Shown: piece after piece, positions 1,279 to 37,746 of the stretch | How positions within the stretch are numbered: position 1 is the first letter of the stretch | Layout: every line of letters starts with the position of its first letter | Source of the DNA: Escherichia phage T7 | Reading direction: 5' to 3' (one strand) | Sequence record: MG833025.1 | Length of the DNA: 38,553 nt | The notes under the pieces: generated by a model | What the model was told of the DNA's origin: nothing | Database searches by the model: none | The model's input: the letters and a program-made list of their open reading frames with translations, nothing else | Program-made: the position numbers and the translations under genes

Positions 1279-1433
1279 TGTCTACTACCAACGTGCAATA
1301 CGGTCTGACCGCTCAAACTGTACTTTTCTATAGCGACATGGTGCGCTGTGGCTTTAACTGGTCACTCGCAATGGCACAGCTCAAAGAACTGTACGAAAAC
1401 AACAAGGCAATAGCTTTAGAATCTGCTGAGTGA
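1278..1433 (+). CDS. 0.4: Gene 0.4 small protein (51 aa)
   Basis: The ATG overlaps the 0.3 stop (taATG); [51 protein letters not shown]. It is below the ORF-track size cutoff. Confidence 0.8.
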   Translation: MSTTNVQYGLTAQTVLFYSDMVRCGFNWSLAMAQLKELYENNKAIALESAE

Positions 1434-1490
1434 TAGACTCAAGGTCGCTCCTAGCGAGTGGCCTTTTTGATTATCACTTTACTTATGAGG
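1434..1490 (+). promoter_or_regulatory. Probable RNase III processing site (R0.5-like) with the native gene 0.5 RBS
   Basis: actcaaggtcgctcctagcgagtggcc can form a hairpin like T7 RNase III sites; gaggga lies just before the ATG at 1496. Confidence 0.55.
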
Positions 1491-1495
1491 GAGTA

Positions 1496-2491
1496 ATGAG
1501 CATCGCGGCGACCCTGGAGAACGATCTGGCGCGTCTGGAAAACGAAAACGCTCGTCTCGAAAAAGACATCGCGAACCTGGAACGTGACCTGGCGAAACTG
1601 GAGCGTGAAGAAGCGTACTTCGGAGGTTCAGGTGGTAAGAACACTGGTGAAATCTCTGAGAAAGTCAAGCTGGGCACTAAGGCACTGGCTGGTCAATGGC
1701 TGGCTTACGGTGTTACTCGCAGTGTGACTAAGAGTTCAGTCATGACGCTGGCTTACGGGTCCAAAGAGTTCGGCTTCCGTCAACAAGTGCTGGAAGATAC
1801 CATTCAGCCAGCTATTGATTCCGGCAAGGGTCTGATGTTCACTCAGCCGAATCAGGCTGCTGGATACATGGCTAAGCTGATTTGGGAATCTGTGAGCGTG
1901 ACGGTGGTAGCTGCGGTTGAAGCAATGAACTGGCTTAAGTCTGCTGCTAAGCTGCTGGCTGCTGAGGTCAAAGATAAGAAGACTGGAGAGATTCTTCGCA
2001 AGCGTTGCGCTGTGCATTGGGTAACTCCTGATGGTTTCCCTGTGTGGCAGGAATACAAGAAGCCTATTCAGACGCGCTTGAACCTGATGTTCCTCGGTCA
2101 GTTCCGCTTACAGCCTACCATTAACACCAACAAAGATAGCGAGATTGATGCACACAAACAGGAGTCTGGTATCGCTCCTAACTTTGTACACAGCCAAGAC
2201 GGTAGCCACCTTCGTAAGACTGTAGTGTGGGCACACGAGAAGTACGGAATCGAATCTTTTGCACTGATTCACGACTCCTTCGGTACGATTCCGGCTGACG
2301 CTGCGAACCTGTTCAAAGCAGTGCGCGAAACTATGGTTGACACATATGAGTCTTGTGATGTACTGGCTGATTTCTACGACCAGTTCGCTGACCAGTTGCA
2401 CGAGTCTCAATTGGACAAAATGCCAGCACTTCCGGCTAAAGGTAACTTGAACCTCCGTGACATCTTAGAGTCGGACTTCGCGTTCGCGTAA
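1496..2491 (+). CDS. 1: Split T7 RNA polymerase, C-terminal fragment: Met, SYNZIP18-like coiled coil, GGSGG, Lys, polymerase residues 601-883 with apparent R632S
   Basis: Translation SIAATLENDLARLENENARLEKDIANLERDLAKLEREEAYF-GGSGG-KNTGEISEKV... runs to the polymerase C-terminus ...LRDILESDFAFA. It contains motif C (IHDSF, H811/D812) and the specificity-loop region. Confidence 0.93.
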   Translation: MSIAATLENDLARLENENARLEKDIANLERDLAKLEREEAYFGGSGGKNTGEISEKVKLGTKALAGQWLAYGVTRSVTKSSVMTLAYGSKEFGFRQQVLEDTIQPAIDSGKGLMFTQPNQAAGYMAKLIWESVSVTVVAAVEAMNWLKSAAKLLAAEVKDKKTGEILRKRCAVHWVTPDGFPVWQEYKKPIQTRLNLMFLGQFRLQPTINTNKDSEIDAHKQESGIAPNFVHSQDGSHLRKTVVWAHEKYGIESFALIHDSFGTIPADAANLFKAVRETMVDTYESCDVLADFYDQFADQLHESQLDKMPALPAKGNLNLRDILESDFAFA

Positions 2492-2510
2492 TAAAGAGGA
2501 GAAATACTAG
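2491..2510 (+). promoter_or_regulatory. Synthetic intercistronic RBS (aaagaggagaaa plus tactag spacer) after a double stop
   Basis: taataaagaggagaaatactagATG matches a standard synthetic-biology RBS part with an assembly scar; this is not native T7 sequence. Confidence 0.8.
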
Positions 2511-4463
2511 ATGAACACGATTAACATCGCTAAGAACGACTTCTCTGACATCGAACTGGCTGCTATCCCGTTCAACACTCTGGCTGACCATTACGGTGAG
2601 CGTTTAGCTCGCGAACAGTTGGCCCTTGAGCATGAGTCTTACGAGATGGGTGAAGCACGCTTCCGCAAGATGTTTGAGCGTCAACTTAAAGCTGGTGAGG
2701 TTGCGGATAACGCTGCCGCCAAGCCTCTCATCACTACCCTACTCCCTAAGATGATTGCACGCATCAACGACTGGTTTGAGGAAGTGAAAGCTAAGCGCGG
2801 CAAGCGCCCGACAGCCTTCCAGTTCCTGCAAGAAATCAAGCCGGAAGCCGTAGCGTACATCACCATTAAGACCACTCTGGCTTGCCTAACCAGTGCTGAC
2901 AATACAACCGTTCAGGCTGTAGCAAGCGCAATCGGTCGGGCCATTGAGGACGAGGCTCGCTTCGGTCGTATCCGTGACCTTGAAGCTAAGCACTTCAAGA
3001 AAAACGTTGAGGAACAACTCAACAAGCGCGTAGGGCACGTCTACAAGAAAGCATTTATGCAAGTTGTCGAGGCTGACATGCTCTCTAAGGGTCTACTCGG
3101 TGGCGAGGCGTGGTCTTCGTGGCATAAGGAAGACTCTATTCATGTAGGAGTACGCTGCATCGAGATGCTCATTGAGTCAACCGGAATGGTTAGCTTACAC
3201 CGCCAAAATGCTGGCGTAGTAGGTCAAGACTCTGAGACTATCGAACTCGCACCTGAATACGCTGAGGCTATCGCAACCCGTGCAGGTGCGCTGGCTGGCA
3301 TCTCTCCGATGTTCCAACCTTGCGTAGTTCCTCCTAAGCCGTGGACTGGCATTACTGGTGGTGGCTATTGGGCTAACGGTCGTCGTCCTCTGGCGCTGGT
3401 GCGTACTCACAGTAAGAAAGCACTGATGCGCTACGAAGACGTTTACATGCCTGAGGTGTACAAAGCGATTAACATTGCGCAAAACACCGCATGGAAAATC
3501 AACAAGAAAGTCCTAGCGGTCGCCAACGTAATCACCAAGTGGAAGCATTGTCCGGTCGAGGACATCCCTGCGATTGAGCGTGAAGAACTCCCGATGAAAC
3601 CGGAAGACATCGACATGAATCCTGAGGCTCTCACCGCGTGGAAACGTGCTGCCGCTGCTGTGTACCGCAAGGACAAGGCTCGCAAGTCTCGCCGTATCAG
3701 CCTTGAGTTCATGCTTGAGCAAGCCAATAAGTTTGCTAACCATAAGGCCATCTGGTTCCCTTACAACATGGACTGGCGCGGTCGTGTTTACGCTGTGTCA
3801 ATGTTCAACCCGCAAGGTAACGATATGACCAAAGGACTGCTTACGCTGGCGAAAGGTAAACCAATCGGTAAGGAAGGTTACTACTGGCTGAAAATCCACG
3901 GTGCAAACTGTGCGGGTGTCGACAAGGTTCCGTTCCCTGAGCGCATCAAGTTCATTGAGGAAAACCACGAGAACATCATGGCTTGCGCTAAGTCTCCACT
4001 GGAGAACACTTGGTGGGCTGAGCAAGATTCTCCGTTCTGCTTCCTTGCGTTCTGCTTTGAGTACGCTGGGGTACAGCACCACGGCCTGAGCTATAACTGC
4101 TCCCTTCCGCTGGCGTTTGACGGGTCTTGCTCTGGCATCCAGCACTTCTCCGCGATGCTCCGAGATGAGGTAGGTGGTCGCGCGGTTAACTTGCTTCCTA
4201 GTGAAACCGTTCAGGACATCTACGGGATTGTTGCTAAGAAAGTCAACGAGATTCTACAAGCAGACGCAATCAATGGGACCGATAACGAAGTAGTTACCGT
4301 GACCGATGAGAACGGAGGTTCAGGTGGTGGATCCAACGAAAAAGAAGAACTGAAATCCAAAAAAGCGGAACTGCGCAACCGTATCGAACAGCTGAAACAG
4401 AAACGTGAACAACTGAAGCAGAAAATCGCGAACCTGCGTAAAGAAATCGAAGCTTACAAATAA
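2511..4463 (+). CDS. 1: Split T7 RNA polymerase, N-terminal fragment: residues 1-601, GGSGGGS, SYNZIP17-like coiled coil
   Basis: MNTINIAKNDFSDIELAAIPFNTLADHYGERLAREQ... runs to ...NEVVTVTDEN, then GGSGGGS and NEKEELKSKKAELRNRIEQLKQKREQLKQKIANLRKEIEAYK. It contains motif A (D537). Confidence 0.93.
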   Translation: MNTINIAKNDFSDIELAAIPFNTLADHYGERLAREQLALEHESYEMGEARFRKMFERQLKAGEVADNAAAKPLITTLLPKMIARINDWFEEVKAKRGKRPTAFQFLQEIKPEAVAYITIKTTLACLTSADNTTVQAVASAIGRAIEDEARFGRIRDLEAKHFKKNVEEQLNKRVGHVYKKAFMQVVEADMLSKGLLGGEAWSSWHKEDSIHVGVRCIEMLIESTGMVSLHRQNAGVVGQDSETIELAPEYAEAIATRAGALAGISPMFQPCVVPPKPWTGITGGGYWANGRRPLALVRTHSKKALMRYEDVYMPEVYKAINIAQNTAWKINKKVLAVANVITKWKHCPVEDIPAIEREELPMKPEDIDMNPEALTAWKRAAAAVYRKDKARKSRRISLEFMLEQANKFANHKAIWFPYNMDWRGRVYAVSMFNPQGNDMTKGLLTLAKGKPIGKEGYYWLKIHGANCAGVDKVPFPERIKFIEENHENIMACAKSPLENTWWAEQDSPFCFLAFCFEYAGVQHHGLSYNCSLPLAFDGSCSGIQHFSAMLRDEVGGRAVNLLPSETVQDIYGIVAKKVNEILQADAINGTDNEVVTVTDENGGSGGGSNEKEELKSKKAELRNRIEQLKQKREQLKQKIANLRKEIEAYK

Positions 4464-4520
4464 GAGGGACAAACTCAAGGTCATTCGCAAGAGTGGCCTT
4501 TATGATTGACCTTCTTCCGG
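4464..4520 (+). promoter_or_regulatory. RNase III processing site R1.1 region
   Basis: gagggacaaactcaaggtcattcgcaagagtggcctttatgattgacc has a hairpin-capable actcaagg...gagtggcc motif like other T7 RNase III sites. Confidence 0.55.
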
Positions 4521-4521
4521 T

Positions 4522-4544
4522 TAATACGACTCACTATAGGAGAA
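4522..4544 (+). promoter_or_regulatory. T7 promoter phi1.1B
   Basis: taatacgactcactataggagaa, +1 near 4539. Confidence 0.9.
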
Positions 4545-4622
4545 CCTTAAGGTTTAACTTTAAGACCCTTAAGTGTTAATTAGAGATTTAAATTAAAGAA
4601 TTACTAAGAGAGGACTTTAAGT
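4545..4622. other. AT-rich region of the primary origin of replication
   Basis: AT-rich tract ttaaggtttaactttaag...agatttaaattaaagaattac just downstream of phi1.1B, where the T7 primary origin lies. Confidence 0.6.
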
Positions 4623-4751
4623 ATGCGTAACTTCGAAAAGATGACCAAACGTTCTAACCGTAATGCTCGTGACTTCGAGGCAACCAAAGGTCGCAAGTTG
4701 AATAAGACTAAGCGTGACCGCTCTCACAAGCGTAGCTGGGAGGGTCAGTAA
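4623..4751 (+). CDS. 1.1: Gene 1.1 small basic protein (42 aa)
   Basis: MRNFEKMTKRSNRNARDFEATKGRKLNKTKRDRSHKRSWEGQ with RBS gagagga upstream. Confidence 0.8.
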   Translation: MRNFEKMTKRSNRNARDFEATKGRKLNKTKRDRSHKRSWEGQ

Positions 4752-4752
4752 G

Positions 4753-5010
4753 ATGGGACGTTTATATAGTGGTAATCTGGCAGCATTCAAGGCAGCAACA
4801 AACAAGCTGTTCCAGTTAGACTTAGCGGTCATTTATGATGACTGGTATGATGCCTATACAAGAAAAGATTGCATACGGTTACGTATTGAGGACAGGAGTG
4901 GAAACCTGATTGATACTAGCACCTTCTACCACCACGACGAGGACGTTCTGTTCAATATGTGTACTGATTGGTTGAACCATATGTATGACCAGTTGAAGGA
5001 CTGGAAGTAA
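4753..5010 (+). CDS. 1.2: Gene 1.2, inhibitor of host dGTPase
   Basis: MGRLYSGNLAAFKAATNKLFQLDLAVIYDDWYDAY... 85 aa. Confidence 0.85.
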   Translation: MGRLYSGNLAAFKAATNKLFQLDLAVIYDDWYDAYTRKDCIRLRIEDRSGNLIDTSTFYHHDEDVLFNMCTDWLNHMYDQLKDWK

Positions 5011-5030
5011 TACGACTCAGTATAGGGACA
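5008..5030 (+). promoter_or_regulatory. T7 promoter phi1.3
   Basis: taatacgactcagtatagggaca, +1 near 5025. Confidence 0.9.
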
Positions 5031-5090
5031 ATGCTTAAGGTCGCTCTCTAGGAGTGGCCTTAGTCATTTAACCAATAGGAGATAAACATT

Positions 5091-6170
5091 ATGATGAACA
5101 TTAAGACTAACCCGTTTAAAGCCGTGTCTTTCGTAGAGTCTGCCATTAAGAAGGCTCTGGATAACGCTGGGTATCTTATCGCTGAAATCAAGTACGATGG
5201 TGTACGCGGGAACATCTGCGTAGACAATACTGCTAACAGTTACTGGCTCTCTCGTGTATCTAAAACGATTCCGGCACTGGAGCACTTAAACGGGTTTGAT
5301 GTTCGCTGGAAGCGTCTACTGAACGATGACCGTTGCTTCTACAAAGATGGCTTTATGCTTGATGGGGAACTCATGGTCAAGGGCGTAGACTTTAACACAG
5401 GGTCCGGCCTACTGCGTACCAAATGGACTGACACGAAGAACCAAGAGTTCCATGAAGAGTTATTCGTTGAACCAATCCGTAAGAAAGATAAAGTTCCCTT
5501 TAAGCTGCACACTGGACACCTTCACATAAAACTGTACGCTATCCTCCCGCTGCACATCGTGGAGTCTGGAGAAGACTGTGATGTCATGACGTTGCTCATG
5601 CAGGAACACGTTAAGAACATGCTGCCTCTGCTACAGGAATACTTCCCTGAAATCGAATGGCAAGCGGCTGAATCTTACGAGGTCTACGATATGGTAGAAC
5701 TACAGCAACTGTACGAGCAGAAGCGAGCAGAAGGCCATGAGGGTCTCATTGTGAAAGACCCGATGTGTATCTATAAGCGCGGTAAGAAATCTGGCTGGTG
5801 GAAAATGAAACCTGAGAACGAAGCTGACGGTATCATTCAGGGTCTGGTATGGGGTACAAAAGGTCTGGCTAATGAAGGTAAAGTGATTGGTTTTGAGGTG
5901 CTTCTTGAGAGTGGTCGTTTAGTTAACGCCACGAATATCTCTCGCGCCTTAATGGATGAGTTCACTGAGACAGTAAAAGAGGCCACCCTAAGTCAATGGG
6001 GATTCTTTAGCCCATACGGTATTGGCGACAACGATGCTTGTACTATTAACCCTTACGATGGCTGGGCGTGTCAAATTAGCTACATGGAGGAAACACCTGA
6101 TGGCTCTTTGCGGCACCCATCGTTCGTAATGTTCCGTGGCACCGAGGACAACCCTCAAGAGAAAATGTAA
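5091..6170 (+). CDS. 1.3: ATP-dependent DNA ligase
   Basis: 359 aa with the KYDGVRG adenylation motif (lysine nucleotidyltransferase motif I). Confidence 0.95.
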   Translation: MMNIKTNPFKAVSFVESAIKKALDNAGYLIAEIKYDGVRGNICVDNTANSYWLSRVSKTIPALEHLNGFDVRWKRLLNDDRCFYKDGFMLDGELMVKGVDFNTGSGLLRTKWTDTKNQEFHEELFVEPIRKKDKVPFKLHTGHLHIKLYAILPLHIVESGEDCDVMTLLMQEHVKNMLPLLQEYFPEIEWQAAESYEVYDMVELQQLYEQKRAEGHEGLIVKDPMCIYKRGKKSGWWKMKPENEADGIIQGLVWGTKGLANEGKVIGFEVLLESGRLVNATNISRALMDEFTETVKEATLSQWGFFSPYGIGDNDACTINPYDGWACQISYMEETPDGSLRHPSFVMFRGTEDNPQEKM

Positions 6171-33239: not shown

Positions 33240-34901
33240 ATGGCTAACGTAATTAAAACCGTTTTGACTTACCAGTTAGATGGCTCCAATCGTGATTTTA
33301 ATATCCCGTTTGAGTATCTAGCCCGTAAGTTCGTAGTGGTAACTCTTATTGGTGTAGACCGAAAGGTCCTTACGATTAATACAGACTATCGCTTTGCTAC
33401 ACGTACTACTATCTCTCTGACAAAGGCTTGGGGTCCAGCCGATGGCTACACGACCATCGAGTTACGTCGAGTAACCTCCACTACCGACCGATTGGTTGAC
33501 TTTACGGATGGTTCAATCCTCCGCGCGTATGACCTTAACGTCGCTCAGATTCAAACGATGCACGTAGCGGAAGAGGCCCGTGACCTCACTACGGATACTA
33601 TCGGTGTCAATAACGATGGTCACTTGGATGCTCGTGGTCGTCGAATTGTGAACCTAGCGAACGCCGTGGATGACCGCGATGCTGTTCCGTTTGGTCAACT
33701 AAAGACCATGAACCAGAACTCATGGCAAGCACGTAATGAAGCCTTACAGTTCCGTAATGAGGCTGAGACTTTCAGAAACCAAGCGGAGGGCTTTAAGAAC
33801 GAGTCCAGTACCAACGCTACGAACACAAAGCAGTGGCGCGATGAGACCAAGGGTTTCCGAGACGAAGCCAAGCGGTTCAAGAATACGGCTGGTCAATACG
33901 CTACATCTGCTGGGAACTCTGCTTCCGCTGCGCATCAATCTGAGGTAAACGCTGAGAACTCTGCCACAGCATCCGCTAACTCTGCTCATTTGGCAGAACA
34001 GCAAGCAGACCGTGCGGAACGTGAGGCAGACAAGCTGGAAAATTACAATGGATTGGCTGGTGCAATTGATAAGGTAGATGGAACCAATGTGTACTGGAAA
34101 GGAAATATTCACGCTAACGGGCGCCTTTACATGACCACAAACGGTTTTGACTGTGGCCAGTATCAACAGTTCTTTGGTGGTGTCACTAATCGTTACTCTG
34201 TCATGGAGTGGGGAGATGAGAACGGATGGCTGATGTATGTTCAACGTAGAGAGTGGACAACAGCGATAGGCGGTAACATCCAGTTAGTAGTAAACGGACA
34301 GATCATCACCCAAGGTGGAGCCATGACCGGTCAGCTAAAATTGCAGAATGGGCATGTTCTTCAATTAGAGTCCGCATCCGACAAGGCGCACTATATTCTA
34401 TCTAAAGATGGTAACAGGAATAACTGGTACATTGGTAGAGGGTCAGATAACAACAATGACTGTACCTTCCACTCCTATGTACATGGTACGACCTTAACAC
34501 TCAAGCAGGACTATGCAGTAGTTAACAAACACTTCCACGTAGGTCAGGCCGTTGTGGCCACTGATGGTAATATTCAAGGTACTAAGTGGGGAGGTAAATG
34601 GCTGGATGCTTACCTACGTGACAGCTTCGTTGCGAAGTCCAAGGCGTGGACTCAGGTGTGGTCTGGTAGTGCTGGCGGTGGGGTAAGTGTGACTGTTTCA
34701 CAGGATCTCCGCTTCCGCAATATCTGGATTAAGTGTGCCAACAACTCTTGGAACTTCTTCCGTACTGGCCCCGATGGAATCTACTTCATAGCCTCTGATG
34801 GTGGATGGTTACGATTCCAAATACACTCCAACGGTCTCGGATTCAAGAATATTGCAGACAGTCGTTCAGTACCTAATGCAATCATGGTGGAGAACGAGTA
34901 A
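33240..34901 (+). CDS. 17: Tail fibre protein
   Basis: 553 aa, MANVIKTVLTYQLDGSNRDFNIPFEYLARKF... Confidence 0.95.
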   Translation: MANVIKTVLTYQLDGSNRDFNIPFEYLARKFVVVTLIGVDRKVLTINTDYRFATRTTISLTKAWGPADGYTTIELRRVTSTTDRLVDFTDGSILRAYDLNVAQIQTMHVAEEARDLTTDTIGVNNDGHLDARGRRIVNLANAVDDRDAVPFGQLKTMNQNSWQARNEALQFRNEAETFRNQAEGFKNESSTNATNTKQWRDETKGFRDEAKRFKNTAGQYATSAGNSASAAHQSEVNAENSATASANSAHLAEQQADRAEREADKLENYNGLAGAIDKVDGTNVYWKGNIHANGRLYMTTNGFDCGQYQQFFGGVTNRYSVMEWGDENGWLMYVQRREWTTAIGGNIQLVVNGQIITQGGAMTGQLKLQNGHVLQLESASDKAHYILSKDGNRNNWYIGRGSDNNNDCTFHSYVHGTTLTLKQDYAVVNKHFHVGQAVVATDGNIQGTKWGGKWLDAYLRDSFVAKSKAWTQVWSGSAGGGVSVTVSQDLRFRNIWIKCANNSWNFFRTGPDGIYFIASDGGWLRFQIHSNGLGFKNIADSRSVPNAIMVENE

Positions 34902-35985: not shown

Positions 35986-37746
35986 GTGTCTACTCAATCC
36001 AATCGTAATGCGCTCGTAGTGGCGCAACTGAAAGGAGACTTCGTGGCGTTCCTATTCGTCTTATGGAAGGCGCTAAACCTACCGGTGCCCACTAAGTGTC
36101 AGATTGACATGGCTAAGGTGCTGGCGAATGGAGACAACAAGAAGTTCATCTTACAGGCTTTCCGTGGTATCGGTAAGTCGTTCATCACATGTGCGTTCGT
36201 TGTGTGGTCCTTATGGAGAGACCCTCAGTTGAAGATACTTATCGTATCAGCCTCTAAGGAGCGTGCAGACGCTAACTCCATCTTTATTAAGAACATCATT
36301 GACCTGCTGCCATTCCTATCTGAGTTAAAGCCAAGACCCGGACAGCGTGACTCGGTAATCAGCTTTGATGTAGGCCCAGCCAATCCTGACCACTCTCCTA
36401 GTGTGAAATCAGTAGGTATCACTGGTCAGTTAACTGGTAGCCGTGCTGACATTATCATTGCGGATGACGTTGAGATTCCGTCTAACAGCGCAACTATGGG
36501 TGCCCGTGAGAAGCTATGGACTCTGGTTCAGGAGTTCGCTGCGTTACTTAAACCGCTGCCTTCCTCTCGCGTTATCTACCTTGGTACACCTCAGACAGAG
36601 ATGACTCTCTATAAGGAACTTGAGGATAACCGTGGGTACACAACCATTATCTGGCCTGCTCTGTACCCAAGGACACGTGAAGAGAACCTCTATTACTCAC
36701 AGCGTCTTGCTCCTATGTTACGCGCTGAGTACGATGAGAACCCTGAGGCACTTGCTGGGACTCCAACAGACCCAGTGCGCTTTGACCGTGATGACCTGCG
36801 CGAGCGTGAGTTGGAATACGGTAAGGCTGGCTTTACGCTACAGTTCATGCTTAACCCTAACCTTAGTGATGCCGAGAAGTACCCGCTGAGGCTTCGTGAC
36901 GCTATCGTAGCGGCCTTAGACTTAGAGAAGGCCCCAATGCATTACCAGTGGCTTCCGAACCGTCAGAACATCATTGAGGACCTTCCTAACGTTGGCCTTA
37001 AGGGTGATGACCTGCATACGTACCACGATTGTTCCAACAACTCAGGTCAGTACCAACAGAAGATTCTGGTCATTGACCCTAGTGGTCGCGGTAAGGACGA
37101 AACAGGTTACGCTGTGCTGTACACACTGAACGGTTACATCTACCTTATGGAAGCTGGAGGTTTCCGTGATGGCTACTCCGATAAGACCCTTGAGTTACTC
37201 GCTAAGAAGGCAAAGCAATGGGGAGTCCAGACGGTTGTCTACGAGAGTAACTTCGGTGACGGTATGTTCGGTAAGGTATTCAGTCCTATCCTTCTTAAAC
37301 ACCACAACTGTGCGATGGAAGAGATTCGTGCCCGTGGTATGAAAGAGATGCGTATTTGCGATACCCTTGAGCCAGTCATGCAGACTCACCGCCTTGTAAT
37401 TCGTGATGAGGTCATTAGGGCCGACTACCAGTCCGCTCGTGACGTAGACGGTAAGCATGACGTTAAGTACTCGTTGTTCTACCAGATGACCCGTATCACT
37501 CGTGAGAAAGGCGCTCTGGCTCATGATGACCGATTGGATGCCCTTGCGTTAGGCATTGAGTATCTCCGTGAGTCCATGCAGTTGGATTCCGTTAAGGTCG
37601 AGGGTGAAGTACTTGCTGACTTCCTTGAGGAACACATGATGCGTCCTACGGTTGCTGCTACGCATATCATTGAGATGTCTGTGGGAGGAGTTGATGTGTA
37701 CTCTGAGGACGATGAGGGTTACGGTACGTCTTTCATTGAGTGGTGA
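35986..37746 (+). CDS. 19: Terminase large subunit (DNA maturation protein B), GTG start
   Basis: 586 aa with ATPase Walker A-like GIGKS and a nuclease domain. Confidence 0.95.

Follow-up and report, generated by a model that had tools for sequence, protein, structure and literature searches.

The window analysed here, that is, the whole stretch of DNA deposited as MG833025.1, is a complete engineered genome of bacteriophage T7 of 38,553 bp, bounded at each end by the 160-bp T7 terminal repeat. In this genome, the gene of T7 RNA polymerase (RNAP), gene 1, is split into two open reading frames (ORFs) whose order is swapped, so that the C-terminal piece comes first. The first ORF (1496-2491) has the composition SynZIP18-GGSGG-K-601:883 and the second (2511-4463) the composition 1:601-GGSGGGS-SynZIP17, in which SynZIP17 is a presumptive identification; the individual parts are listed in the table below.

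Parts of the split RNA polymerase cassette and sequence differences within it (positions in the window)
Feature	Position	Strand	Evidence
Start ATG (1496-1498, from gene 0.5; native gene 0.5 Shine-Dalgarno upstream), SynZIP18 and GGSGG	1496-1636	+	Translation
SynZIP18, 41 aa	1499-1621	+	Exact match to published Syn18 sequence
GGSGG linker	1622-1636	+	Translation
C-terminal "sigma" portion: K, N601-A883 and stop	1637-2491	+	T7 identity; PF00940
Scar Lys replacing E600	1637-1639	+	
Codon 632 of T7 RNAP, AGT = Ser	1733-1735	+	NC_001604 comparison; PDB alignment; translation
Silent change in T816, ACC to ACG; KpnI site lost (GGTACC to GGTACG)	2287	+	G versus C at T7 5618
Sigma-ORF stop TAA	2489-2491	+	
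Inter-cistronic spacer, 19 nt, TAAAGAGGAGAAATACTAG: second stop (TAA) and synthetic RBS	2492-2510	+	Sequence
N-terminal "core" (alpha-beta), T7 RNAP residues 1-601	2511-4313	+	Pfam RPOL_N and RNA_pol profile 1-145
Silent change in D471, GAT to GAC; SalI site gained (GTCGAC)	3923	+	NC_001604 comparison
GGSGGGS linker	4314-4334	+	Translation
42-aa coiled coil taken as SynZIP17	4335-4460	+	Translation; design description
Core-ORF stop TAA	4461-4463	+	Translation
T7 sequence resumes at about T7 5847, the phi1.1A transcription start	4464-4500	+	Comparison with T7

The translation of 1637-2491 reads K-NTGEISEKV...DFAFA-stop and comprises 284 residues. The core fragment ends with ...TVTDEN(601) at 4313 and the sigma fragment begins with K-N601 at 1637, which places the break at residue 601 and distributes the polymerase over two ORFs. 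The RNA_pol family PF00940 is likewise cut in two, with profile positions 1-145 in the second ORF and 147-376 in the first, where the C-terminal fragment is matched with E = 2.2e-55. The core fragment is wild type at the protein level and differs by one silent nucleotide change; together, the silent changes at 2287 and 3923 are a typical signature of a cloned, domesticated gene copy. Among solved structures in the PDB, the nearest relatives of the SynZIP18 peptide are SYNZIP6/2/1, and the 42-aa heptad-repeat peptide at 4335-4460, presumably SynZIP17, matches designed coiled coils only. The ribosome-binding site in the spacer between the two cistrons resembles BioBrick B0034 plus a scar.

The cassette takes the place of a larger piece of the early region. 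T7 homology stops at window 1498, and T7 1499-3165 is deleted, a segment which covers genes 0.5, 0.6A/B and 0.7 as well as the host promoters B and C. A second deletion, T7 5823-5846, removes the upstream part of the promoter phi1.1A. The promoters lost are thus host B (T7 1514), host C (T7 3113) and phage phi1.1A, and as a consequence of these losses both RNAP cistrons must be transcribed by the RNAP of Escherichia coli from A1, A2 and A3 (window 498, 626 and 750). Furthermore, phi1.1B is the only phage promoter left near genes 1.1 and 1.2. Beyond the cassette, window 4463-38553 (34,091 nt) is 100% identical to T7 5847-39937. This segment shows zero differences to the 1983 reference sequence (V01146/NC_001604) and two differences to the T7 sequence AY264774 of the Bull laboratory, which gives the record the appearance of having been assembled in silico from reference and insert rather than sequenced de novo. 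One isolated difference is found upstream of the cassette, where window 1467 is T and both NC_001604 and the Bull-laboratory wild type AY264774 have A. This base lies in an unpaired internal loop of a strong hairpin that separates gene 0.4 from gene 0.5 and is presumably the RNase III site R0.5; the predicted minimum free energy of the hairpin is the same with either base (-22.4 kcal/mol). The T may stem from the T7-delta-1 lineage or from a homology arm of the plasmid.

Within the C-terminal fragment, a single codon sets the polymerase apart from the wild type. In a base-by-base comparison, window base 1733 is A and the corresponding base 5064 of NC_001604 is C, whereby codon 632 of gene 1 changes from CGT (Arg) in the reference to AGT (Ser) in the window. 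The surrounding segment, window 1638-2491, corresponds to T7 4969-5822 and is identical at 852 of 854 nucleotides (99.77%), with R632S as the sole amino-acid change across residues 601-883. The same result is obtained at the protein level by phmmer, which aligns residues 1-284 of the product of 1637-2491 with chain residues 600-883 of 1cez, 1qln, 1msw and other PDB entries for T7 RNAP (E = 1.6e-189). The two sequences differ at two positions, K for E600 and S for R632, and 282 of the 284 residues are the same as in the 1cez/1qln chains; the lysine at residue 600 is the junction scar. The catalytic and NTP-binding residues R627, K631, Y639, H811 and D812 are all intact in the C-terminal part. 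A sequence-only reading of this DNA had given the wild-type motif as TKRSVMT and had placed a serine at position 632 by counting from N601; the preceding lysine occupies position 600. Both the motif and the numbering are borne out by the PDB alignment and the comparison with NC_001604, and the codon change that it had foreseen, agt or agc in place of cgt, proved at the nucleotide level to be exactly CGT to AGT.

From the wild-type codon 632, this change is the only one-base route to serine, and it represents one of approximately 2,550 single-base changes that are possible within the C-terminal fragment. Given this number, and since the substitution occurs together with the split at 601 and the SynZIPs known from a published cassette that carries R632S, its presence is more than chance. 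An alternative would give the A at 1733 no engineered meaning and ascribe it to an error of sequencing or assembly, or to a polymorphism that occurs naturally in T7. As only one base is concerned, in a record of which the other 34,091 nt match the reference, the difference might in principle be noise; however, it yields precisely the substitution of the published T7* RNAP, in the same codon AGT, and the published parent of the surrounding cassette has R632S as well.

Database searches bear on the same question. When the 67-nt context of codon 632 was used as a query, matches were obtained in 150 phage records and in 28 E. coli genomes that contain gene 1, all of them with one mismatch and none identical, and the plasmid collection gave no match to this context; the 28 E. 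coli genomes are DE3 lysogens and engineered strains. The C-terminal fragment as a whole matched 2,670 phage records by tblastn, with a best identity of 99.3%, and no record of the phage collection covered more than 91% of window 1400-4700. In addition, the wild-type T7 polymerase was aligned with 13 diverse natural phage polymerases, ranging from T3-like to phiKMV-, SP6- and Friunavirus (Fri1)-like enzymes. Across these 14 sequences R627, K631 and Y639 are invariant, and position 632 is occupied by arginine in nine, lysine in four and proline in one, with serine in none. A basic residue at 13 of 14 and serine nowhere in the set indicate that the basic residue is the natural state and Ser632 a laboratory state. 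The absence of the variant from the matched phage and E. coli sequences and from the sampled natural homologues, together with the agreement with T7* and the parentage of the cassette, leads us to reject sequencing error and natural polymorphism, which are effectively refuted.

The origin of the serine codon can be traced through the literature on engineered T7 polymerases. R632S, a change in the active site, arose spontaneously during cloning and made the polymerase markedly less toxic to its host (Temme et al., 2012, NAR; PMC3458549). The resulting allele, T7* RNAP, contains R632S and is the polymerase in which a bisection (splitposon) library was subsequently built (Segall-Shapiro et al., 2014, Mol Syst Biol; PMC4299498). 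In that study, the split alone left approximately one quarter of T7* activity, and the 601 split was improved more than tenfold when short flexible linkers attached SynZIP17 to the N-terminal and SynZIP18 to the C-terminal fragment, with the scar residues of the splitposon kept in the split RNAP (PMC4299498). The 42-aa peptide at the end of the second ORF is taken to be SynZIP17 on the basis of this design description (Segall-Shapiro et al., 2014). Parts from the Addgene pTHSSd plasmids were then rebuilt as a two-fragment RNAP in T7, which gave the phage JB 13-78 (MG833025; Garry et al., 2018, Virus Evolution; PMC6009699). The order of the cassette, the deletions and the 19-nt spacer with its extra TAA are those of JB 13-78 as described there (PMC6009699). 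Taken together, the three papers (PMC3458549, PMC4299498 and PMC6009699) account for every feature of the cassette.

Ser632 is therefore a known engineered allele within a known published construct, ordinary and already explained. Very probably, it is the T7* allele, which travelled as a passenger from the split-polymerase plasmids of the Voigt laboratory into the phage JB 13-78 of Garry, Ellington, Molineux and Bull. The inheritance of AGT from the plasmid parts is one that we infer from the papers, not from plasmid sequence. T7* RNAP has been used in several studies (Segall-Shapiro et al., 2014; Baumschlager et al., 2017, for Opto-T7RNAP; Boehm et al., 2018), and AGT has also been chosen by others for R632S (bioRxiv 10.1101/140871). 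The sequence-only reading had linked R632S to engineered polymerases of low toxicity, which agrees with PMC3458549 and PMC4299498, and had suspected a synthetic-biology origin, for which the split T7* parts of PMC4299498 and then the phage of PMC6009699 provide the documented path. The context that it had in mind is refined in one respect, as the cassette belongs to a whole engineered phage genome and not to an expression plasmid.

Two other routes to the same codon have to be weighed against inheritance from T7* parts. R632S could have arisen de novo while the construct was being made, either in the recombinant phage or in the recombination plasmid, possibly through selection, since an RNAP of lower activity harms the plasmid host less; a recurrence is conceivable for a substitution that was first seen as a spontaneous cloning mutation. 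We nevertheless regard this as highly unlikely, because the source plasmids are stated to be derivatives of T7* RNAP, the R632S variant, which makes an independent recurrence unnecessary, and because the two silent restriction-site changes mark the gene as a pre-existing cloned allele. The phage engineers could also have added R632S on purpose as a second attenuating lesion, which would suit both the attenuation that their study aimed at and the reduced activity of the R632S polymerase. Against such an intention, which we likewise consider highly unlikely, the full text of Garry et al. (2018; PMC6009699) ascribes the loss of fitness to fragmentation alone and contains neither "632" nor "toxic" nor "Temme", so that R632S goes unmentioned. 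The reading as an inherited T7* passenger thus remains the one adopted in the following.

The known functions of R632 give an indication of how the serine may act. R632 is located on the O-helix and, in the pre-insertion complex, makes contact with the ribose moiety of the incoming NTP, with R627 and K631 placed at the triphosphate alongside Y639 (PMC9836923). Together with R425, R632 also contacts the initiating GTP; the variants R632N and R632Q favour priming by cap analogs, and R632N makes no RNA when the cap analog is omitted (PMC13148922). In a deep mutational scan, R627, K631 and R632 were found to be intolerant of mutation. For R632S itself, the amount of inducer required for half-maximal output in vivo rises about 30-fold, the fall in output at high induction that is linked to toxicity is abolished, and in a split RNAP the maximal output is reduced about 3-fold (PMC5823926). 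A C-terminal fragment named "T7c R632S" even serves as a deliberately deactivated part in PACE (PMC12818411). The effect of R632S was earlier likened, by analogy only, to reduced processivity (Temme et al., 2012; PMC3458549), whereas the data on R632N, R632Q and R632A would rather point to initiation and NTP binding. Most likely, Ser632 lowers the activity per polymerase molecule.

In the mechanism that we propose for the phage, both cistrons, situated in the early region 3' of the host promoters A1-A3, would be translated from the gene 0.5 ribosome-binding site in the case of the first and from the synthetic one in the case of the second. The two fragments would then reassemble via the antiparallel SynZIP17/18 coiled coil to an active RNAP, by which the middle and late genes of T7 could be transcribed. 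The most likely contribution of Ser632 would be weaker NTP binding and de novo initiation, and hence less RNA per enzyme molecule. On plasmids its effect would be relief from toxicity, and in the phage it would presumably act as a handicap added to the attenuation by fragmentation.

In the phage study, the drop in fitness from approximately 35 to approximately 15 doublings/h was ascribed to fragmentation alone, and the evolved phage regained approximately 20 doublings/h (PMC6009699). It is conceivable, and in our judgement a little short of probable, that this phage, attenuated by protein fragmentation, carries in R632S a second, unacknowledged lesion, which accounts for part of the loss of approximately 20 doublings/h. 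After approximately 100 generations of evolution, Table 1 of the same study lists no change at 1733-1735 (PMC6009699). Three single-base routes lead from AGT back to arginine, namely to CGT, AGA and AGG, and the persistence of S632 in spite of them suggests that its cost to the phage may be small or is compensated elsewhere. If R632S is indeed a second lesion, the adaptive substitutions V685A and N697S, which both lie in the sigma fragment, might compensate for S632 rather than for the split; this role of the two substitutions is speculative. Fitness comparisons of the phage with wild-type T7 are in any case confounded, as R632S, the loss of genes 0.5-0.7 and the loss of phi1.1A come in addition to fragmentation. 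Users of the fragmented-RNAP phage, or of the mutations evolved in it, should therefore consider that its polymerase differs from the wild type beyond the split.

The mutation coordinates published for this phage can be placed directly on the window. The early rows of Table 1 of Garry et al. (2018) land exactly on the expected bases (1486 T, 1893 T, 1929 A and 4297 C), and the corresponding codons are V133 of the sigma ORF, or V685, for 1893, N145, or N697, for 1929, and T596 for 4297. At window 4296-4298, the change printed as "T530I (T596)" corresponds to codon 596 of the alpha-beta ORF. The offset of 66 equals the numbering of the beta fragment (residues 67 onward) in the three-fragment design, and the published ORF numbering therefore appears to mix constructs. 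For the four late-gene rows, the codons in the window are shifted uniformly by 38 nt to the right of the printed positions (17498 at 17536, 22666 at 22704, 33991 at 34029 and 36465 at 36503). The window may thus differ slightly from the reference behind Table 1; the offset implies either a 38-nt difference in length relative to the reference of the late rows, located between 4297 and 17498, or an inconsistency of the table.

Altogether, the window represents a synthetic construct rather than a natural variant of the phage, and its odd codon is a documented laboratory allele. Three engineered systems are close to it. T7* RNAP has the identical residue, amino acid and codon (AGT) in a polymerase that is otherwise of wild-type sequence; there, however, the allele is carried on an inducible plasmid with low toxicity as the goal, whereas in the window it is part of the genome of a replicating phage, which relies on it. 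The "resource allocator" of Segall-Shapiro et al. (2014), SZ18-601:883 plus 1:601-SZ17, shares with the window the split after residue 601 with N601 in both pieces, the retained scar residue, the flexible Gly/Ser linker and, at the N-terminal end of the C-terminal fragment, a SynZIP18 of exactly the same sequence. In contrast to the window, its fragments are carried on separate plasmids under PTac or constitutive promoters; in the phage they are encoded on one early transcript, with the sigma fragment first, and are served by the gene 0.5 and the synthetic ribosome-binding sites. The third system is JB 13-78 itself, from whose published description the window departs in the late-gene coordinates, which are 38 nt lower in the paper. 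With JB 13-78, the window has in common the T7-delta-1 backbone, which is devoid of genes 0.5, 0.6A/B and 0.7, gene 1 and part of phi1.1A, as well as the two-fragment RNAP in reverse order, the 19-nt spacer, the extra stop codon and the coordinates of the early-region mutations.
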